Shown: positions 2,629 to 52,470 of the stretch, one piece after another
Layout: the number at the start of each line of letters is the position of its first letter
Numbering within the stretch: the stretch's first letter is position 1
Source of the DNA: Candidatus Bathyarchaeota archaeon
GTDB taxonomy: Archaea; Thermoproteota; Bathyarchaeia; Bathyarchaeales; Bathycorpusculaceae
Direction: 5' to 3'
Length of the DNA stretch: 64,000 nucleotides
Assembly (NCBI GenBank): GCA_963811105.1
Contig: CAWEPZ010000011.1
Location: 32,001 to 96,000, forward strand
Translations under genes and position numbers: made by a program
The notes under the pieces: model-generated
Database searches by the model: none
Seen by the model: the letters and a program-made list of their open reading frames with translations, nothing else
Told to the model about the DNA's origin: nothing

Positions 2629-3793
2629 CTATCTTGCTCGGCCGCCTTTCTTTAATGAGGTAATTATTTTCTCGAATTCTTGTTCGGTCATGAACGGAAA
2701 CATTGGAAGTGAAAGAATCTTGGAATACAATGCTTCTGCTTGCGGAAAATCTCCTTTTCGGTATTTTGTAGTTTTTTTGTAGTAGGAAAAAATGTGTAGA
2801 GGGGGATAGTGAACTCCTGTTGTTATGCCCTCTTTTTTCAGAAAATCATAAAGTTTGTCTCTTTTCAAAGGGTACTGTTTTTCAACTTTGACTTCTAACA
2901 GATGGAAAACGCCTTGTCGATAGATGTCAGATTCTGGATCATGGAGCATTTCAATGCCGTCGATTTTTTCTAACTCTTCTTTATACCTTTTTGCTATTTT
3001 CCGTCTAGATTCAATGATAAGGTCAAGTTTTTCCATTTGTTTAAGTCCGATTACAGCCTCAATTTCGCTCATCCTAAAATTGAAGCCTAAATCAGTAACG
3101 TCGTAACGCCAATGAGCGAACTTTTCCTTTGGAGTCTTGCTTTGACCATGATTTCTTATTAAGAGAGCTCTGTCTTTAACTTTTTCACTACTTGTGACAA
3201 GCATCCCTCCTTCTCCCGTCGTCATATTTTTTGTAGCATAAAAACTAAAACAACCTGCATCTCCAAAACTGCCAACTTTCTTATCTCCAAATTTTGCACC
3301 GACAGACTGAGCGCAGTCCTCCACCATTCTTAAGTCTATGTTTCTTGACCAATGGACCGATCTGTTTCATGTTGCATGGAAAACCATACAGGTGAACGGG
3401 TATGACACATTTGATTTTGTCATTTTCTTCGAGTTGGGTTGCTAACTTTGCCGCATCAAGTTCGCCGTCTTCTCCTACGTCGCAGAACAAGACTTCAGCC
3501 CCTAGCCATCTAACAACATTCGCGGTTGCGACGAAAGTATTTACTGGAACCACAACCGAGTCGCCATTTTTTATTCCTAATCCATCCAAAGCTAAGTACA
3601 AAGCGGAGGTACAAGAATCAGTAGCTACACCATATTTAGACGATATATAATTTGCAAAGGCTTCTTCAAACTTTATCGTTTTTGGACCCATGGTCAGCCA
3701 ACCAGATTCAAGAACTTCTCGAATTGAATCTAATACCTCAGCGCCTATAGTATTTTGAGGCTTGTACAATGGAATATGGTCTACAATATTCAA
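2629..3793 (-). CDS. DegT/DnrJ/EryC1/StrS PLP-dependent sugar aminotransferase, frameshift near 3330
   Basis: ESGWLTMGP, SCTSALYLAL, PVHLYG, EDCAQS, FSFYATKNMTTGEGGM, GFNFRMSE and LSLPMFP. The N-half lies in ORF 3281..4723. Confidence 0.9.
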
Positions 3794-4723
3794 TACCTCC
3801 AATGATAGATTTATTATCTTTTTAACTTTTACTAAGTTTTCTTGTACAAAGGTGTCGGTTTTCGGAGCATAAGTTAGGCTTCGCTCGGGCCAATTCTCCC
3901 GAAGACCATTGACAGTCGGAGAAGTTTTGAGCTCACAGATTTCGCCCTTGATAGCAACGAAAGTAAGATGATCCGGATGATGAATTCCAGGCTTTCCAAA
4001 ATTCATATGTGCTGGATTAAAGCATTCGTAAATAGAAGAAAAACCTGCTTTGCTGAGTAAGTTGATTAAGGATGGCCGGGTGAACCAGAAACTAGTCATA
4101 TTATCTATTGAGTAAAAGAGACGTTTCGCTTTCTCCTCTGCTGTGGCATTTTCAGGGTGTTCCCGGAATATGGTGCCCCAGTATTCGTCATTGTTATACT
4201 CTACCCGCTCGATTGGCTCAAGAGCTACCCGGACATCAAGTACTATAAGTCTATTTACCATCTCATACATAGTTTTGATAAGGTTAATTGCATCAATAGC
4301 GGGCAAATGATAGAAAACGCCACTGCAAATAATTGCATCAAATTTTCCATAAGACGCAACAGATATTTTTCTAATATCATCTTGTCGAAACTCTAAGTTT
4401 TTTAGGTTTAGAACTTCTTTGCTGAATATGGCTTTCTTAATATTGGCTTCTCTTGCTTCCACGCCAATTGTGTCTGCCCCATGTAATGCAAATTCGATGG
4501 AGAACATCCCATCCGAACATCCTAAATCGAGAATGCGGGATTCAGAAATTGGCTTCTGAGATAGATCGTTCACAATTTGGACTATTTTCCTAAGTCTTGT
4601 CTGGGGTATCCCCTGATTTCCTTTAGTCCAGATGCCAAAAGGAAGAGGAATGTCAAAGTTCCATTCGCCATATTTAAGTTTAAGTTCATCAAGTTCTTGC
4701 TGAATCTGTTCTTTGGTGTACAT
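3794..4723 (-). CDS. Class I SAM-dependent methyltransferase, reads in frame into the DegT gene
   Basis: ILDLGCSDG motif I and FDAIICSGVFYHL. No stop codon before the DegT domain. Confidence 0.8.
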
Positions 4724-33846: not shown

Positions 33847-34274
33847 GTTACTTTGTTTAGGACAAGAAATTATTAAGAGAACTTGTTAATCCAAATCAAC
33901 AAGGACTACAATTTTAGCAATAAAGTTGTTGGTCCTGCGCTTTCAAATCCACAACCATTAATTGCCGTCGTCTTCCTTTCCTCCCACTTCAAAGCCAACT
34001 TCGTCTCCACCTTCTTCTTTCATAAATACTAATGGAAGATCCATAAATCAATCTTTATTTGATCTAAACATGTCTTTAGAAATTTCTTCCTGAAGGGAAA
34101 GATAAGCAAGAAATTTATATTGAAGGTATTTTTCTCCTTTTTTCACTTCGTTTCTAAACTCAGTATTTTGAGATTTTATTATGAAATATACACAATTTGT
34201 TAAGAACAAAGGAATATGTTATTTTTTTCTAATCCTTAAAGCCACCGTCAAATGTAAATTTAATGCATTCGTGG

Positions 34275-34905
34275 TCAGGTTTCCACATATTTTACAATTT
34301 CAAAGGCTTCGGCTGCTGCGACGCCGACTTGGCTTCCTCTGAAAGTAGCAAGATTGACAGTTGATTCGTACGCTAAATATCTTTTTTCGTTTTGGGACAC
34401 ATGACATTTTAGGGCTTCCCATTTCTTGTCAACGCAACCGGTTATGTTTACGAAATATGTGGGTAAGAAAGCCGCTGGTCTTACTCTGGGTGTTTCAAAA
34501 GCGAGAACCTTTGGAACGTTCCTAAAAGCTGACATTGCTAGCCAGCCTACTCTTCTGTGATCCTGGTGAGTATCGTTAATTGAATGAGTTAGCACAATAT
34601 CGGGTTGGTATTTGAGGGCGTAATTTTCTAAGCAGTTTATGGCTTCGAATGAATCTGGTATCTCGGTGTCAGGAAAATTCTCAAAATGAATGTTCTTCAA
34701 CGCCTAAAACATTCATGGCCTCTGTGCTTTCCCTCATCCTTACATTGGTGTCGGTGATTTTTCCGCCTCTTGTCATATACAGGGCGATTACTTGCGCTCC
34801 TGCCTGCACAGCTTTATAGATTGTCCCGCCGGACCCCAATTCAATATCATCAGGATGTGCACCAACCGCCAACACAACCTTCTTTGCAAACACCAACTTA
34901 ATCAT
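34275..34905 (-). CDS. PIG-L/LmbE (BshB/MshB-like) N-acetylglucosaminyl de-N-acetylase, one frameshift near 34695
   Basis: GAHPDDIELG and DTHQDH metal-binding motifs; KWEALKCHVSQ; AEAF. Confidence 0.9.
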
Positions 34906-35040
34906 CAGCCACCCAAATTGAAGTTAAAGACTATTCAAAACTCAAGATAATAACCTTTGCTCAAAACTACGCAATATAATTAAAAAAACAAACTATCGTG
35001 TGGCTTTAGCCTCAATTCGGCAACCAGCTGGCAACTTGAT

Positions 35041-36302
35041 TTAAGGAGTGAGCCGGTATGGATTTAATGTGCTGTTGTCTGTTTTAGACAGTATTTTTCT
35101 TGAAGATCTGGCGCACATCATGAAGAATGGGGAAAGATCGTCCCATGCGAACCAAGCGCTTTCTTGAACGCCACGATATGATGTTAACCATTGCTTAAAT
35201 GTGAGGCTTTTTTCGTAATGGTACCGAAAACTCGAAACAAGATCCCTATCTTCAACAAACCATTTTCTCCCCTCAACAAGCGTCACTTGAAGGAACTGGC
35301 TGGCCAGTGAGATCCAAATATTGGGCGCGGGCAACATCTAACCCATTATCTCCCACAAAGAGCCGAAAAGTCGAGCCTATACGTGGATTAATATCGAGCA
35401 CCTTGTAGCGTCCATCCCGCATATCATACCTATATCCGATGTCAAGAATCCCTCTGTAACCAATACTTTTCATAAAATCTCTCGTCATCTCATCAACCAC
35501 CTGGTTTTTCAGACAAACACCAAGTGAAGTCACCCCAGTATGAATTGGAGATTGACGAATTTTTCTTCCAGTCATTCCAAAAAGACAATCCGATTTCTCA
35601 TCAAAATAACCATTAAACATCCAAATCGAATCATCCCCACCCGGAATGTACTCTTGTAGCATAAAATTTGGGTTCGAAGAATCTTCACATTGACTATAAA
35701 ATCTTGAGGAGTTCAGCTTTCGTTTTTGCCACGAACATTCTTTTTCCAACTCGCGGCGACCCCCCACGATAAAGCTCCTTTAAAACAACAGGAAAAACTG
35801 CATCCTTCACATATTCTTCAACATCCCCCATAGAAAGCGGAAAGCACGCCTCGGGAGTTGGAACACCATGTTTTTTGGCGAGAAAATACATCTCTTTCTT
35901 GTTGGCAAGCGCGTAAAACAAGTTGCTTAGAAGGTTTTGGAAAAATGTACCCTTCACTCAACGCGTCGGCGTTTTCTGCAAGCCAACCTGCACCACTATC
36001 TGTTGTATGAATCAGAAGGGAGCGCTTTCCAATTTTCTTGGCAACATCCAACAAGTATTGAACAGAATCTTGAGGAGGTGCGGCGTCTACATCATACAAG
36101 AATTTTTTCTGACAATATCGAGAGAACAGACCTGCAGACCTTGGATTTGGATCAACACCATGGACCGCAATTCCAAGCCGCCCAAGACTGCGCACGACGC
36201 CTAATTGACCATAATGGTAAGTATACAATACCACAACTGGAACAGAAGTGTCGCCTACAGAAAACTCTGCACTATTGAGCGCTTTTCTCGCCTCACAATC
36301 AA
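35041..36302 (-). CDS. ATP-grasp carboxylate-amine ligase (D-aspartate ligase-like family), frameshifted
   Basis: LGVVRSLGRLG, LANKKEMYFLA..HGVPTP, FPVVLK, MLQEYIPG, RKIRQSP, YKVLDINPRIG. TTG start overlaps the reconstructed comB stop (TTGA). Confidence 0.85.
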
Positions 36303-37031
36303 TTTGTCGCTTTAACTATCTCATCGTTCTTAACGGCGAGTACCAAATTCAAGTCGTTAACATGCCTGAGAATAAAATCAAGATCTCTTAGTTTGACCAG
36401 ATCTTCGCAAATACTCCGCACTTTTACCCTCTCCGCAAACCGTAACTGGCTTATCCATCCAACGATTCACAATCTCAACGGTTTTATCATCTTCCGGCGA
36501 GAATCCAGCTTTCATAAGACCAGCTGCAATCCAAGCACAACACAACTGATCCTCCTCACGAAACTCCCCCCGAGTGGGTGCACCAAGAACTACTACCCGA
36601 CTGTAAAGTCCAACGAGATGATTGACGGTTGAATCATAATTTCGAAGACACGCCACATAAACTGAATTACAATCCTTCAACGAATAAAGCAGCGGTATCC
36701 CTGATGAAGAAACCATAATTGCAGGCCGCGAGATATCTTTACGGCTTTCAATTTCCACCGGACTATTATTAATGTCGAAGCCATAAGGCATGCTGCCGCC
36801 CATTTCACCGACCATCAACGGATTATCAAGCCTCTTTGCCAGAAGAAATGCCTCTTCAACCGAAGGAGCAAAAAAACACCTTCGCCCAGATTCCACAGCT
36901 GTGGCCGCCACGGTTATTGAACGAATAACATCGATAACAACAACTGCGCATCCCTCACCGAAAGGATGAAGACTCTCAGATAGGCAATCGATAGCAACTG
37001 ATTTTCTACTCAAAACCCTGTTCTCCTTCAC
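36299..37031 (-). CDS. comB: 2-phosphosulfolactate phosphatase; frameshift near the C-terminus
   Basis: VVIDVIRS, GE..G....GFDINNSP, SSSG, ACLRN and FREEDQLCC. Alternative frame continues DLDFIL...ATN* to 36299. Confidence 0.88.
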
Positions 37032-37034
37032 ACA

Positions 37035-37886
37035 TTATTCCACAGGAAGATGTGGACGCAGATTCTCTTTACTGAAAGCATCTGAATGCAGTCCTCGCCG
37101 ATAAATTTCCACCCTCAACAACTCTTCAAGCCGAACGTTACATAGATGAACTTCACTGCCGAAGTGATCCAACAAAGCAAACTGACTCGGCTTGTTTGGC
37201 GCTTCAAACATAACAACGCCGTGCCCAAACGCATCAGCAAAACGATCCGCAAAACCCACATTAAGATTGCCCTCATCATCAAACAGACCAACACCCTTCG
37301 CGCTCTCCCGCGCCTCCACAACCAACTGAACAGCACCAGCCTCAAGCCACCTTCTACCTTGACTAATCAATGCCTCAACCACATCCTGCGTAAAAGCACC
37401 TGTATGCTTCTTACCAAGCTCAAACTGCACTTCTAAGCCACGGTCGTTTGCCATCTTTACAATCTCCTGAGCGTCCAACGAAATATCCGTGAAACCCTCC
37501 CCGCACTCAATCCGCGTAAACCCAAAATCCGCCACAAGATCAAGATACTGAGGCAATTTACCCTGCACGTAAGCAACCTCAAAAGGACCCCCACCAGTAG
37601 TCGTCGGCACTCGGTATTTCTTGGCAACTGCGATTTTCTGACGCGTAACATGCTCGTCTGCAATCATCCAGCACGCCATCGAAATCTTCAGAATCGACAT
37701 GAGATGGTGACTTTGTTCAAGATGACCCGCCAACGTTACGGCATCATACCCAGGGTCAAAAGGACTAGTAGCCGAACGAATTTCATCAACACCAATAGAC
37801 TTTAAGTAGTCATCAGTATGCAGTCGCCCTTCTCGAGTAATATTTGAAGAGGGAAAAAAATCAGCCAATTCTTTCACCCATATCAA
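37035..37886 (-). CDS. comA: Phosphosulfolactate synthase (ComA family, divergent N-terminus)
   Basis: GGGPFE, QFELGKK, LEAGA..LVVEARES, FEAPNKPSQ, HLCNV and E..RRGL.SD. Confidence 0.9.
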   Translation of the reverse strand: MIWVKELADFFPSSNITREGRLHTDDYLKSIGVDEIRSATSPFDPGYDAVTLAGHLEQSHHLMSILKISMACWMIADEHVTRQKIAVAKKYRVPTTTGGGPFEVAYVQGKLPQYLDLVADFGFTRIECGEGFTDISLDAQEIVKMANDRGLEVQFELGKKHTGAFTQDVVEALISQGRRWLEAGAVQLVVEARESAKGVGLFDDEGNLNVGFADRFADAFGHGVVMFEAPNKPSQFALLDHFGSEVHLCNVRLEELLRVEIYRRGLHSDAFSKENLRPHLPVE

Positions 37887-37963
37887 TCATGCGTTAGTTG
37901 AAATTACGATTATAAATTCATAAAGCATAAGCTTCAAAAAACGAAATTGTTATATGAACACTA

Positions 37964-38203
37964 ATGACTCACGATTCAACCTTTAACCGAAAATTCCTCA
38001 TCATTTTCCACGGCTTGGGCTTAAGCTGCATAGGCGGCGCAATATTCCTCCAAATCTTAGCATTCTCAAGCATACTCTACCAAGGGTATTTCAAAGCATT
38101 TGAGAATAATCCAGCAATACTCTCATCTGAAATAATTCTAACAGGCTTTGCACTAATCTACTTTATTTACATATATCAACTATTGATCCGGTCAGTAAAA
38201 TAA
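37964..38203 (+). CDS. Small two-TM membrane protein
   Basis: 79-aa ORF with two hydrophobic segments, divergent from comA. Confidence 0.6.
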   Translation: MTHDSTFNRKFLIIFHGLGLSCIGGAIFLQILAFSSILYQGYFKAFENNPAILSSEIILTGFALIYFIYIYQLLIRSVK

Positions 38204-38366
38204 ACACTATCTAACAGAAAACAATAGGCACTATTTGTCTTGTTACACAAGCTGATAGGCAAATAAAAGTAGCCGGTTTGCAACCCTTCTTGTCAAGAAG
38301 TCGCAATGTAATAACAAATCATGGACGCTCAATAAGCGATAAGACCAAACGATTCAGCTTTGCACT

Positions 38367-40212
38367 TCAGGGGAGCTTTGGTCGCTTCCTAACAAATTTG
38401 AGAACAAGAAGGGCTATGGTTGTTGTCACTGCAATAATTGCCACCGCCAAGCCAACGTATATTATGGGGAAACCTTGGTCAGCACTTGCAGCCACTAAAG
38501 CGTTTATTGCGTAAGTTTGGCTGACCCCGCCTGTACCAACAGTCTTAATGTCAAATGTGTGGTTTCCATCAGCTAACCCGTTAAATGTGTACTGTGTCTG
38601 AGTTCCTATATTTGTCCAAGCACCATCGTCAAGTTTAACTTCATAATGATCCACCGTCGAACCTGCATTAGTTGTTTTCCAGCTAATTTGAAGCGACGAC
38701 GACTTTACTTCACTTCCATTGCCAATGGAAGATGTTAACTCTATTGCTGGCGCCCTAAGAATCGGTGTACTTGTTGGAGTCGGTGCAGGCGTGGCAATCG
38801 GGTTTGGGGGAGGTGTTAAGATTGCTGGAGTCGCTATTGAAGTTGGAGGAGGCGTAGGCATTAAAGTTGATGTTGGCGTTGGAGAAGGCGTCGGTGAATC
38901 AGTTGGAGTAGGAGTAGGCGTTGGAGAAGGTGTCGAGGTTGGTGCTGGAGTAGGAGTTGATGTGGGGGTCGGAGTTGGTGAAGGTGTTGGAGAAGGCGTG
39001 GGCGAAGCAGTTGGAGTTGGAGTAGGCGTTGGAGTAGGTGTAGAGGTTGGCGCTGGAGTAGGAATTGATGTGGGGGTCGGAGTTGGTGAAGGTGTTGGAG
39101 AAGGCGTAGGCGAAGCAGTTGGAGTTGGAGATAAGGCGAAGATTGCTTTGAGGAAGCCGTCGCCGTGAACTTGAACTGTCGATGTGCTTTGTTCTGAATT
39201 GAGAACGTAGACTCCTTCGTCTGGATAACCGCTGCATTCCCAATGGTCGAACTGATAACCTTGGGGAACGTTTGCGGTAGCATTATAGTTGCCTGAAGAA
39301 AGGACCTGGGTCTGCCCAGAATTGTAGATTGTACCGTTGAATGTAATAGTTGCCTCAGGCAAGTCAGGATTTGTTTCGAACAACACTGTTCCGTTAGGAT
39401 TATTGACCAGCACGTCGCTGCTTGAAATCGCTACGGCGACGTCATTTGGTGCTTTATAATAGTAGGTTGTCCAGTTGGTTGAAGCGCTAATTTGACCGTC
39501 AACTGAAACCCAGTTATTAAGTGAGAAGTGGAAATCGAAAGCGGGGGAGCCTCCAGAGACTGAGGTGTACCAGATTTCCTCATAATTCGCATAGTTAAGG
39601 GATCCCGCGTAGCTATTTGACAAAACCAAGTAGTTTCCACCGGTTGGCGCATTTAAAGACCAAATCTGACTGGACCCTTGATAGGCAGCAAAACTGCTGA
39701 TACCACTCTGAGTGGTAATGTCAAAAGTGTATGTAGCTCCCAGTGATAACAGCAAGTGCGTTTGCAGTGTAATGGAAAGTCAGATTGTTCGCCGGTCCAG
39801 TTGTCCATGAATAGGTTAATCCCCAAGTGCCATAATTATTGGAAAATCCAATCTGATCGTAGCTTCCAGCGCTATCCCATGCAGAAAGTAGGACGTAGTA
39901 AAATTCGTCTGATCGAGGCGTTGAATAAGGTATTGTTATTGTCATGCCTATGGTTTGCGCAGAGTGGTTTGTGAACCAAGTGCACGCGCTCCCGGCATAC
40001 CAGAGGGGCGCTCCTGGATATGCTGAGAGAGAAGGTCCTAAGGGTGGAAATATATTATGTCCGTCTGCTGTAGGAAAAGTGCCGCCGATTGACCAGGTGC
40101 ACTCGCTTTTTTCGCTTTCTGCAGTATTCTTATTGGAACTAATGGAGGCTACACTCAAAAATGCGGCTGGGAATAGGACGAAAACAATGATCAAAGCAAA
40201 TAATTTCAGCAA
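38367..40212 (-). CDS. Membrane-anchored surface protein: signal peptide, beta-rich N-domain, PT linker, Ig/FN3-like domain, C-terminal TM; frameshift near 39750
   Basis: ORFs 39721..40212 and 38367..39755 overlap. [10 protein letters not shown]...[13 protein letters not shown], then TM plus RKRPK tail. Confidence 0.8.
38875..39130. repeat. 108-bp tandem repeat (~2.3 copies) encoding a Pro/Thr/Ser linker
   Basis: gg(c/t)gaa(g/t)cagttggagt recurs at 38893, 39001 and 39109. Confidence 0.85.
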
Positions 40213-40456
40213 CTCTCGCCTCGTCTTTCCTTCTTTTGGGTTGTATCTGCTTAATCCTTGCTAAATCCGACCGAAACAACAACTCTCACACTGCACAAAA
40301 TCTAACGTGTTCATAGAGAGGAGAGGTTAAGCAGGATGCGATGTCAAAATGTTATAATTTATATGAACAACTTTCCGGATGCCAGGGAAGTAAAAGACTA
40401 AGAATAGTTTAAAGCCACGGCGCTTTATCGATAGTTGGGAAGAACAAATAGAGAGG

Positions 40457-41341
40457 ATGTTTACTAATTTGGCTCCGCCCAAATCACAAAGCGATCGTCC
40501 GCAGAAGCTTGTTGATGAATTCTTCGATACAAACGCAACTTATTGGAGGGACACTTACAAAGAAAAGGGCATTTCCGGAACCATTTATCAACGGCGACAA
40601 GCCGTAGCGCTCAGTTATGTCGATGGGTTATCGCTTCCCAGAACCGCACGTGTTCTAGAAATTGGTTGTGGGGCAGGGTTCATGACTGCAGCTCTCGCAA
40701 AACGAGGATTTGTAATAAAAGCTATTGATCATGCTCAAACAATGGTCGATCTAACAATAGAACATGCGAAACAAAAGGGCATTTTGAATCAGATCAGCGC
40801 CTGCACTGGAGATATCCACGAACTATCTTATGAAGACCAAACGTTTGACTTAATTATTGCCTTGGGGGTGATCCCCTGGCTTCATGATTTAAAAAAGGCA
40901 TTGACCGAGATCGTAAGAGTAGCAAAGCCAGGCGGATATGTTGTCGTGACCATGGACAACATTCAAAGAGCAACAACTATTCTAGACCCCAAAACTTTTC
41001 CCCCAATCGCACACATCCGATGGCTAATAAAGAGGAAACTTGAGAGAGCAGGGTTGCTTAGCTCATACAATCTTTGGGTCAATGCTCCACCTTACAGTCA
41101 ACACTCACCAAAAGAATTCAAAAAAAATCTTTACCACGCTGGTCTAACTGTTATGAAGAGCACAAGTGTAGGGTTTGGACCATTCACTTTTTTTGGCCAT
41201 CGTTTATTCTCGGAAAGGGTTGGAATCAAAATTCACCAGAAGCTACAGGAATACGCTGACAGCAGTTACCCATTTTTCCGCTCAACCGGATCACAATACA
41301 TTGTCCTAGCAAAAAGGAAGTTGCCCAAAACAATTCCTTAA
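40457..41341 (+). CDS. Class I SAM-dependent methyltransferase
   Basis: VLEIGCGAG, GDIHELSYEDQTFDLI and EIVRVAKPGG. Confidence 0.9.
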   Translation: MFTNLAPPKSQSDRPQKLVDEFFDTNATYWRDTYKEKGISGTIYQRRQAVALSYVDGLSLPRTARVLEIGCGAGFMTAALAKRGFVIKAIDHAQTMVDLTIEHAKQKGILNQISACTGDIHELSYEDQTFDLIIALGVIPWLHDLKKALTEIVRVAKPGGYVVVTMDNIQRATTILDPKTFPPIAHIRWLIKRKLERAGLLSSYNLWVNAPPYSQHSPKEFKKNLYHAGLTVMKSTSVGFGPFTFFGHRLFSERVGIKIHQKLQEYADSSYPFFRSTGSQYIVLAKRKLPKTIP

Positions 41342-45031: not shown

Positions 45032-45475
45032 TTATTGAATACCCCATTTCTTGACAACTTTTACCAAGATGAAGATTACAAGGGCAACTATGAGGAAGGT
45101 TATTAGCGCAATTAAGAAGTCGCCGAGCGCAAATATTTGACCAGTGTAGCCAGCCGGAGGATTCCCTTGAGCATCAAACGTAGTCGAGGGAACAGCATAC
45201 TTTATAGTTGACAAGTTGCCAAGTCCAGGAATAGCAAGTCCTATCGCGGGAAGCAGCAAGTCTTTAACGAGGCCCTGAATCACACCGCCTAAATAAAGAC
45301 CTATGATGAAAGCAACAGCGAGGCCGAAGACCTTGTACTGCGAAAGAAAGTCTTTGAATTCGTTCCATAAGCCTTTAGGCGGTTTAGGCGGAGGAGCTTT
45401 CTCCAAAGCTGCACTAATTTTCTTTAACTCTGCAATTATTTCATCTTCTTTGTCCAAATAATAAAACCTCTGCAA
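45032..45475 (-). CDS. mscL: Large-conductance mechanosensitive channel
   Basis: EFKDFL...VFGLAVAFIIG...LVKDLLLP and GDFLIALITFLIVA. Confidence 0.88.
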   Translation of the reverse strand: MQRFYYLDKEDEIIAELKKISAALEKAPPPKPPKGLWNEFKDFLSQYKVFGLAVAFIIGLYLGGVIQGLVKDLLLPAIGLAIPGLGNLSTIKYAVPSTTFDAQGNPPAGYTGQIFALGDFLIALITFLIVALVIFILVKVVKKWGIQ

Positions 45476-52395: not shown

Positions 52396-52470
52396 TGGAC
52401 CGGGCGGGATTTGAACCCGCGGCTTCCGCGTTGCGAACGCGGCGATCATACCAGGCTGATCTACCGGCCC
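52396..52470 (-). tRNA. tRNA-Ala(CGC), no intron, CCA not encoded
   Basis: GGGCCGG...CCGGTCCA acceptor with G3:U70. Anticodon arm CCGCG-TTCGCAA-CGCGG. T-loop GGTTCAAATCC. Confidence 0.97.

Follow-up and report, generated by a model that had tools for sequence, protein, structure and literature searches.

A conserved comA–comB–ligase–methyltransferase cassette in surface-glycan loci of bacteria and Bathyarchaeia, a possible route for placing sulfolactate on polysaccharides

What do ComA and ComB, two enzymes commonly taken to indicate coenzyme M biosynthesis, contribute to an archaeon whose genome shows no coenzyme M pathway? The question is raised by a 64,000-nucleotide stretch of a Bathyarchaeia genome (contig CAWEPZ010000011.1 of assembly GCA_963811105.1, positions 32,001–96,000; hereafter ‘the window’), in which homologues of both genes lie beside a gene for an ATP-grasp ligase. 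By established family chemistry, ComA combines sulfite with phosphoenolpyruvate (PEP) and ComB removes the phosphate, to give (R)-3-sulfolactate. In the window, comA (37035–37886, minus strand) is an intact open reading frame (ORF) of 283 amino acids, a phosphosulfolactate synthase homologue of a ligase-linked subclade that matches PF02679 over profile positions 13–243 of 243 (E 9.3e-47; 159.9 bits, cut-off 25.2). The comB gene (36299–37031, minus strand) encodes a homologue of 2-phosphosulfolactate phosphatase (PF04029, E 4.4e-29; 101.7 bits, cut-off 26.4); its frame is broken near 36390, with one extra base near 36391–36393. The third gene (35041–36302, minus strand) codes for a carboxylate-amine-type ATP-grasp ligase; it is split into four frame pieces, and its orthologues are about 413 amino acids long. 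The first-pass annotation of this DNA had described a gap of 3 nucleotides between comA and comB, and a TTGA overlap between the comB stop and a TTG start of the ligase. Both are present: comB starts at 37031, 3 nucleotides past the comA stop, and the TTGA occupies 36302–36299 of the minus strand (TGA at 36299–36301).

We find that these three genes, together with a class-I S-adenosylmethionine (SAM) methyltransferase gene (40457–41341, plus strand; PF08241, E 5.5e-22) that is divergent from comA in the window, constitute a conserved four-gene cassette inside polysaccharide and surface-glycan loci. The best reading of this locus, in which we place about even confidence, is that the cassette conjugates sulfolactate to a glycan. 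The comA–comB–ligase set of the first-pass annotation is thus retained, and is extended by three elements that it lacked: the methyltransferase, a racemase-like gene found in some loci, and relatives of the ligase that are independent of comA.

The arrangement was surveyed in two directions. In the forward direction, we took the best 80 of 370 confirmed ligase relatives in contigs that represent one genome per species, with 10-kb flanks, and scored the presence of comA and comB by tblastn with the window’s ComA and ComB. These 80 loci, the closest of which to the window’s ligase locus are metagenome-assembled genomes (MAGs) of Candidatus Bathyarchaeota / Bathyarchaeia, span Bathyarchaeota, Ignavibacteria, Bacteroidota, Acidobacteriota (the majority), Chloroflexota, Pseudomonadota and one Methanomicrobiales MAG. 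At least one of the two genes is beside the ligase in 74/80 loci: both are within the flanks in 71, comA only in one (L033) and comB only, at a contig edge, in two (L008, L077); the remaining six have neither (L015, L016, L044, L069, L075, L082). ComA identity to the window’s protein is 57–93% across these phyla, and for 57 of the 75 ligase-family ORFs of 380–560 amino acids a comA or comB match is less than 400 bp away.

The reverse survey applied a comA profile, and then a ligase profile, to an even sample of 301 Terriglobia genomes. Here, comA falls into two score classes: 19 genes are of the subclade seen in the window (147–167 bits, profile positions 12/13–243) and nine are canonical (271–286 bits). 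For 17/19 of the subclade genes, a same-strand ligase of at least 500 bits is found no more than about 2.2 kb away; a ligase is on the contig for 0/9 of the canonical genes. The two subclade genes that depart from this pattern have other occupants in the ligase position: a divergent ATP-grasp protein in G391, in which a close ligase is on another contig, and an ORF of 515 amino acids with no Pfam match in G597. Conversely, 17 of the 23 ligase matches of at least 500 bits stand beside comA, compared with none of the 44 weaker matches (one of which is in G621). In total, 14 of the 301 genomes carry comA beside the ligase.

Closer to the window, comA is present in 5 of the 25 genomes searched in its genus (the window’s own included), and a close ligase orthologue lies 0.8–3 kb from comA in 4/4 of the genomes that have one. 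Among 301 Bathyarchaeia genomes, 23 possess comA, nearly all canonical; besides the window’s genome, the subclade form is found only in G177, as a comA–comB–ligase triad. As a separate observation, canonical ComA (204–298 bits) is common in one Bathyarchaeia family (f35; 18/43 genomes), with no adjacent ligase (e.g., L085, L089, L096). The comA–comB–ligase arrangement is therefore not a chance juxtaposition, as it recurs in 74/80 related loci; the neighbourhood survey for which the first-pass annotation had called shows the ligase to be kept beside the subclade comAB in both directions.

Is the cassette then a remnant, or an outlying part, of coenzyme M biosynthesis? The genome that carries the window (3.49 Mb in 15 contigs, 41% G+C, 96.65% complete) has a single copy of comA, and a search of its whole length found no mcrA (PF02249), comC (PF02615) or comD (TIGR03845); its only matches to comE (TIGR03846) are ordinary thiamine pyrophosphate-dependent enzymes, far below the family cut-off. 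The absence of coenzyme M genes that had been noted for the window thus extends to the entire genome. The first-pass annotation had named two computable findings that would count against its proposal, namely a ligase that is not conserved next to comAB elsewhere and a full coenzyme M pathway relying on this comAB; since the ligase is conserved and no such pathway was found, neither applies.

The subclade to which the window’s ComA belongs is well delimited. In a quick maximum-likelihood tree (IQ-TREE, midpoint root), 55/55 ligase-linked ComA sequences fall into one clade (Shimodaira–Hasegawa-like approximate likelihood ratio test, SH-aLRT, 100), and a very long branch separates this clade from 12 canonical sequences. 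The window’s protein nevertheless aligns through residues 38–273 with the structure of Methanocaldococcus (M.) jannaschii ComA (1qwg; E 2.5e-34): the alignment spans the whole barrel and the motif blocks are shared. It is from this family homology and these motif blocks that we propose that the subclade, too, would add sulfite to PEP. Within the tree, 11 Bathyarchaeota rows (the window’s among them) and the Methanomicrobiales MAG form a group of 12 (SH-aLRT 98) that nests among rows from Ignavibacteria, Bacteroidota and Acidobacteriota; this nesting suggests, as a lead only, that the cassette was transferred from bacteria into these archaea.

The ligase was characterized through its intact relatives. 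A search at E ≤ 0.001 with the largest of the window’s ligase fragments returned 3,904 longer homologues, the best of which are about 413 amino acids long and 68–86% identical across the fragment. The AlphaFold model of one orthologue (P0002; predicted local distance difference test score 84.4, predicted template modelling score 0.86) is a three-domain ATP-grasp enzyme: Foldseek relates it with probability 1.00 to biotin carboxylase, to PurK and to the L-amino-acid ligases RizA (4wd3) and BL00235 (3vot). Relative to the closest solved folds, template modelling (TM) scores for this model are 0.46–0.62 at 12–18% identity, with RizA, BL00235 and PurK at about 0.54–0.62. Family assignments by sequence are less specific. 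The Pfam matches of the ligase fall below gathering thresholds (PF02786, 19.3 versus 19.8 bits; PF15632, 17.9 versus 29.1), and PF02786 is the only family that Pfam lists for P0002 at E ≤ 0.001, with no TupA-like ATP-grasp domain; no NCBIfam family matched, and the ESM Atlas match is to a ‘carboxylate-amine ligase family protein’ only. The best E value of the ligase profile against the PDB is 3.5e-5, and what sequence and fold searches of that database retrieved was limited to generic relatives among the ATP-grasp enzymes and class-I methyltransferases. The name ‘D-aspartate ligase’ that many homologues bear is a Joint Genome Institute (JGI) label only.

A clue to the role of the ligase comes from its relatives that have no comAB. 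Five of these (L044, L075, L082, L103, L104) are beside a dehydrogenase of the ornithine-cyclodeaminase / mu-crystallin family, with a methyltransferase as well (seen in L044); in two others (L015, L016) the neighbours are an octopine-dehydrogenase-family enzyme, a methyltransferase, an Asp/Glu racemase and a PIG-L protein. The ligase family thus seems, from these gene neighbourhoods, to work with one or another provider of small polar acids, which fits a role for sulfolactate as the donor acid. Opine-type amides are present in some O-antigens. The comAB-less loci may be sister cassettes that handle other small acids, which related ligases partnered by opine dehydrogenases would attach in the same manner.

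When the ORFs of the 80 loci were clustered and representatives were scanned against Pfam, the class-I SAM methyltransferase cluster was found next to comA in 42/80 loci; its orthologue is directly beside comA in L005, L006 and L045. The methyltransferase and the ligase are also found fused, in either domain order (L040, L063), and methyltransferase domains are carried by 11 of the 120 listed ligase homologues. An apparent ligase–ComA fusion in L064 (9803–13021, an ORF of 1072 amino acids) was set aside: its middle 350 or so amino acids are an Arg/Pro/Gly-rich, out-of-frame translation of a methyltransferase gene, in a high-GC long-read MAG.

An accessory gene of the LarA family is present in 8/80 loci (L021, L037, L043, L049, L051, L059, L083, L084; none in the window), and it is located between the methyltransferase and comA where gene order is intact. 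Its best NCBIfam matches are the nickel-dependent malate racemases LarAH5 and LarAH6 (174 bits versus a cut-off of 500), and malate is the carboxylate analogue of sulfolactate. We therefore regard this gene as a candidate sulfolactate racemase, whose presence would fit a free 2-hydroxy-acid intermediate, i.e., sulfolactate.

The cassette is embedded in three kinds of polysaccharide locus. In Terriglobia, a co-directional cluster begins with Wza, an AAA/PEGA ATPase, a Wzc-like ATPase, NusG, UDP-glucose dehydrogenase, an epimerase and a priming sugar transferase; then follow the methyltransferase, comA, comB and the ligase, a polytopic Wzx-like membrane protein, an APH-type kinase, GT4 glycosyltransferases, an FkbM methyltransferase and Wzy. 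In Ignavibacteria and Bacteroidota (L024, L029, L054, L079 and similar loci), the cassette is adjoined by a second, very divergent ATP-grasp protein (21% identity), a GNAT protein (Acetyltransf_6), a GH9 hydrolase and a GT2 synthase; these loci look like synthase-dependent, cellulose-like polymer loci. In Bathyarchaeia, the order is GT2, an ORF of 157 amino acids, DUF1616, the methyltransferase (divergent), comA, comB, the ligase and PIG-L, followed by a Gfo/Idh/MocA oxidoreductase, an ORF of 303 amino acids with no family, and GT4 genes. The occurrence of the same four genes in three polysaccharide assembly contexts argues for a modular decoration. In the window itself, glycan genes (DegT, GT2, GT4, FkbM and class-I methyltransferases, APH-type kinase) make up most of the ORFs scanned between about 1,450 and 45,500, as the first-pass annotation had it.

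From these components, we hypothesize the following pathway. ComA would add sulfite to PEP and ComB would dephosphorylate the product to (R)-3-sulfolactate, as homology indicates; the ligase would then use ATP to couple sulfolactate to a glycan building block, as suggested by its genomic context. The most likely route for that coupling, judging from the chemistry of the ATP-grasp family, begins with conversion of the sulfolactate carboxylate to an acyl phosphate, which a nucleophile then attacks. In this archaeon, the likeliest acceptor would be a free amine exposed by the adjacent PIG-L de-N-acetylase, giving an N-sulfolactyl sugar; context alone points to this acceptor. More speculatively, the methyltransferase may modify the same product, possibly on the 2-hydroxyl. 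The outcome would be a permanently anionic, C–S bonded decoration of the surface polysaccharide. In its most general form, the proposal is that a horizontally mobile four-gene cassette equips the extracellular or surface polysaccharides of soil and sediment Acidobacteriota, Ignavibacteria, Bacteroidota and Bathyarchaeia with a sulfolactyl group that is optionally O-methylated; we advance this wider version tentatively, with somewhat less than even confidence.

The PIG-L gene (34275–34905, minus strand; PF02585 on both of its pieces, with an extra base near 34693–34695) is the next gene downstream of the ligase, in an order that is shared by 13 Bathyarchaeota loci. Of the two amine sources suggested earlier, PIG-L and a DegT aminotransferase, the DegT gene (2653–3748) is about 31 kb away. 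The interpretation of the first-pass annotation, an amide between sulfolactate and an amino sugar, is supported in part: the glycan context recurs across phyla and the racemase-like gene fits a free sulfolactate intermediate, but an amine acceptor is plausible only in archaeal loci.

Several observations weigh against the proposed pathway. The link between the ligase and sulfolactate is guilt by association, drawn from context only. In the Terriglobia sample, comA is not adjacent to 6/23 of the ligases that score at least 500 bits, and five of the genomes concerned lack it altogether; for the comAB-less ligase loci, 4/5 genomes are devoid of comA anywhere. No specificity position (at least 85% versus at most 35% conserved) separates 58 comAB-adjacent ligases from 12 comAB-less ones, so that the substrate cannot be read from residue comparison. 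An amine acceptor is plausible in archaeal loci only: bacterial loci offer no obvious amine, because PIG-L is within 10 kb in 13/80 loci, all of them Bathyarchaeota, and DegT in 4/80. The window’s ComA scores 163.7 bits against the NCBIfam equivalog TIGR03849, for which the cut-off is 280, and intact ComB orthologues are below every NCBIfam equivalog cut-off; these scores make a changed substrate possible. Finally, a look through the genome for a source of sulfite for ComA found no ATP sulfurylase (PF01747) and only a marginal match (22.8 bits) to an enzyme like 3′-phosphoadenosine 5′-phosphosulfate (PAPS) reductase.

The reading frames in the window are the subject of a further doubt: is the cassette functional in this particular genome? 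The first-pass annotation had treated the frameshifts simply as faults in need of correction. Against the intact L007 orthologue, comB aligns as residues 1–209 in frame -3 and residues 207–236 in frame -1, ending at 36305; the repaired frame terminates at the TGA at 36299–36301. The ligase aligns to the 413-residue P0002 as four pieces (residues 12–138, 111–194, 195–340 and 335–413), and a start at the TTG at 36302 would need one further frame change before about 36255. PIG-L is read in two frames, at 89–90% identity to the intact L005 orthologue. We compared the region 34200–38000 with aligned Logan contigs from four public runs in four studies, which are 88–99% alike to the window; as no public run had more than 0.28 of the sampled words, these contigs come from related populations and not demonstrably from the source strain. 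At 34693/34695, 35283, 35702–35706, 35913–35915 and 36391/36393 the related contigs are without exactly one base; these five sites are the frame breaks, and the window is +1 relative to every related population that covers them.

We conclude that consensus errors of a long-read metagenome assembly are the probable cause of the broken frames of comB, the ligase and PIG-L, both because related contigs are without one base at the five sites and because the breaks in sibling long-read MAGs fall in different genes of this locus (L006, comB and PIG-L; L045, comB and the ligase; L012 and G023, the ligase). The competing explanation, that the extra bases are real and that the cassette in this genome is a decaying array of pseudogenes that makes no product here, strikes us as unlikely, although it deserves serious weight. 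In its favour are at least five single-base insertions in 2.1 kb over three adjacent genes, the 2.5-kb insertion that parts comA from the methyltransferase, and the patchy distribution of the cassette in the genus that was described above. The breaks are also concentrated in an island, C11:1–80000 (window 1–48000), where stop-free frames of at least 200 amino acids cover 0.34–0.45 of the sequence, compared with a genome median of 0.647; this concentration fits real gene decay as well, and so counts against a working cassette in this archaeon. Decay is opposed by the identity to intact orthologues, which is 81–91% at the amino-acid level in 6/8 aligned frame pieces of comB, the ligase and PIG-L (lower values are given by the ComB tail of 30 residues, at 63%, and by the third ligase alignment, which overruns its frame break, at 68%), by the lack of any in-frame stop seen within the aligned pieces, by the differently placed breaks in the sibling MAGs, and by the intact state of comA and the methyltransferase. 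The same island is among the genome’s poorest for long frames, from either a worse consensus in a strain-variable glycan region or many decaying genes. None of the listed public runs that carry window sequence is an RNA run. More generally, consensus errors of long-read MAGs can hide conserved operons from ORF-based annotation.

If the proposal of a sulfolactyl donor is taken up again, its polarity also needs to be considered. The ligase might instead activate another carboxylate, such as that of an amino acid or of a uronic acid in the repeat unit, and the 2-hydroxyl of sulfolactate would then be the nucleophile that forms an ester; in a variant of this scheme, sulfolactate would be an aglycone decorated by a glycosyltransferase. 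We consider either version to be distinctly improbable. (R)-Sulfolactate does resemble D-lactate, and D-Ala-D-lactate ligases form esters. A UDP-glucose dehydrogenase cluster, mainly of the Terriglobia type, is present in 14/80 loci, bacterial loci have no amine-generating gene nearby, and a constant substrate, other than the small acid, would accord with the observation that no specificity positions set comAB-linked ligases apart from unlinked ones. Moreover, a glycan-modifying ATP-grasp domain, Cj1438C, activates the sugar’s own carboxylate (PMC11800379). On the other hand, those 14 loci are the only ones to have the dehydrogenase cluster; within Bathyarchaeia that gene is found only in L013, about 8 kb upstream, with none beside the cassette or in the scanned ORFs of the window, and by Pfam the ligase is not a TupA-like ATP-grasp enzyme. 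Ester-forming members are, in addition, a minority of ATP-grasp enzymes.

It is also conceivable that the product of the cassette is small and soluble, such as an osmolyte, an N-sulfolactyl amino acid, or a glycoside like bacillithiol with sulfolactate in place of malate, formed by the combined action of GT4, PIG-L and the ligase. The archaeal loci lend this idea some appeal, as the PIG-L protein has the bacillithiol deacetylase BshB1 as its best NCBIfam match (below cut-off, 92.6 versus 182.5 bits) and GT4 genes are adjacent; some loci (e.g., L022, L023, L063, L072) carry the triad with no clear polysaccharide neighbours. We nonetheless give it little credence, because PIG-L is absent from bacterial loci and because, in many independent Terriglobia genomes, a single co-directional cluster has the cassette placed after the priming transferase gene and before the genes for the Wzx-like protein and Wzy. 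Least probable of all, and very unlikely in our judgement, is that subclade ComA and ComB make no sulfolactate, with another nucleophile being added to PEP, or another 2-phospho acid being acted on, and the ligase handling a different hydroxy acid: the very long branch, the sub-threshold equivalog scores and the missing sulfate-to-sulfite route would agree with such a change, but the shared motif blocks and whole-barrel alignment to 1qwg, the joint presence of ComA and ComB in 71/80 loci, as a two-step route predicts, and a malate-racemase-like neighbour that fits a C3/C4 2-hydroxy acid with an anionic β-substituent all speak against it.

Some other features of the window are recorded here. 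The insert between comA and the methyltransferase (37887–40456; about 2.5 kb) is absent from L005, L006 and L045 by tblastn synteny. It contains, on the minus strand, an ORF of 462 amino acids with one fn3 domain by Pfam (38367–39755) and a second ORF of 163 amino acids with no family (39721–40212). The G+C content of the insert is 0.458, exceeding that of its flanks; for the cassette region as a whole it is 0.45, versus 0.37–0.41 in the flanks. The DegT gene lies in a region (2629–4723, minus strand) where a DegT/DnrJ aminotransferase is read in two frames, the N-terminal part sharing its ORF with a domain of a class-I methyltransferase; either the two proteins are fused, as a methyltransferase–aminotransferase, or an insertion or deletion has merged two genes. 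Just past the glycan locus are a gene for an MscL mechanosensitive channel (45032–45475, minus strand) and the sole Rfam match of the window, a transfer RNA (52396–52470, minus strand).

What would follow if sulfolactate is indeed attached to glycans by this cassette? The interest of the finding begins with the genes themselves, which here form a distinct ComA clade that is partnered by a ligase and a methyltransferase in polysaccharide loci of both bacteria and archaea. A sulfolactyl substituent would be a new sulfonate acyl group, carbon-bonded, in the repertoire of glycan substituents, and would represent a third biological fate of sulfolactate; it would also explain comAB genes of non-methanogens that are now annotated misleadingly. 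Carbon-bonded sulfur is an important pool in soil organic matter. The cassette would be a microbial source of such sulfur, and would provide a direct route from sulfite to the recalcitrant organosulfonate pool of soils and peat.

The first-pass annotation knew of no described pathway of this kind, and our literature searches, which had supplements and subscription journals outside their scope, agree: in the full-text searches, most hits of which were judged by title and abstract, no paper connected sulfolactate or phosphosulfolactate synthase to a glycan or to an ATP-grasp enzyme. The terms ‘sulfolactyl’, ‘sulfolactoyl’ and ‘sulpholactyl’ were not in use in the literature searched, and ‘3-sulfolactic’ was encountered only in metabolomics or ligand lists. 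Four sets of candidate hits were discarded. A pseudomurein paper that mentions sulfolactate and ATP-grasp is unrelated by title and abstract, as are the papers retrieved for phosphosulfolactate synthase in Acidobacteria; by title and abstract, none of the papers on phosphosulfolactate synthase and polysaccharide deals with a glycan pathway, and the passages of PMC11796062, one of these, concern transporters; in PMC6018796, retrieved for sulfolactate and glycosyltransferase, the passages are on suyAB and comC only.

How, then, does the cassette compare with known systems? The nearest is the coenzyme M pathway, the first two steps of which, in methanogens, employ a homologous synthase and phosphatase with the same presumed product, (R)-sulfolactate; unlike that pathway, the present system belongs to a separate ComA clade, has a ligase and a methyltransferase as partners and resides in glycan loci, and comC, comD and mcrA were not found in the genome. 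YitC and YitD of B. subtilis, the ComB and ComA homologues that make spore sulfolactate, are a precedent for such enzymes yielding sulfolactate as an end product outside methanogenesis, and our comA family search also matches the B. subtilis control genome. There, however, sulfolactate accumulates in free form, whereas here a conserved ligase and methyltransferase accompany the pair in a polysaccharide context; nor was any PAPS-reductase-like neighbour, as in a YitBCD-type operon, seen at the cassette loci.

For the accessory gene, the LarAH5 and LarAH6 malate racemases are the closest relatives, and by analogy it would interconvert (R)- and (S)-sulfolactate; it differs from them in scoring well below their cut-off, and the window’s own cassette has no such gene. 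The ligase shares its three-domain ATP-grasp fold with the L-amino-acid ligases RizA and BL00235, and would be related to ATP-grasp enzymes of the D-aspartate ligase and COG3919 types. The likeness to D-aspartate ligase comes by way of the JGI label only, and the setting is different: the host is an archaeon, glycan genes surround the cassette, and there is no peptidoglycan context. The closest functional parallel may be the C-terminal ATP-grasp domain of Cj1438, which forms an amide on a sugar of the Campylobacter jejuni HS:2 capsule (PMC11800379). It offers a precedent for a glycan-decorating ATP-grasp enzyme: in both cases the gene is in a polysaccharide locus, and an amide-linked small polar group decorates the polymer there, as is predicted here. 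The ligase of the cassette differs from Cj1438C in that it has no TupA-like Pfam match and in that its partner genes would supply the acid rather than the amine. We rate the cassette as a pathway that is undescribed and widely conserved but built from enzyme families already known: it brings together a supply of sulfolactate, a ligase and a methyltransferase, which the closest known systems do not combine.

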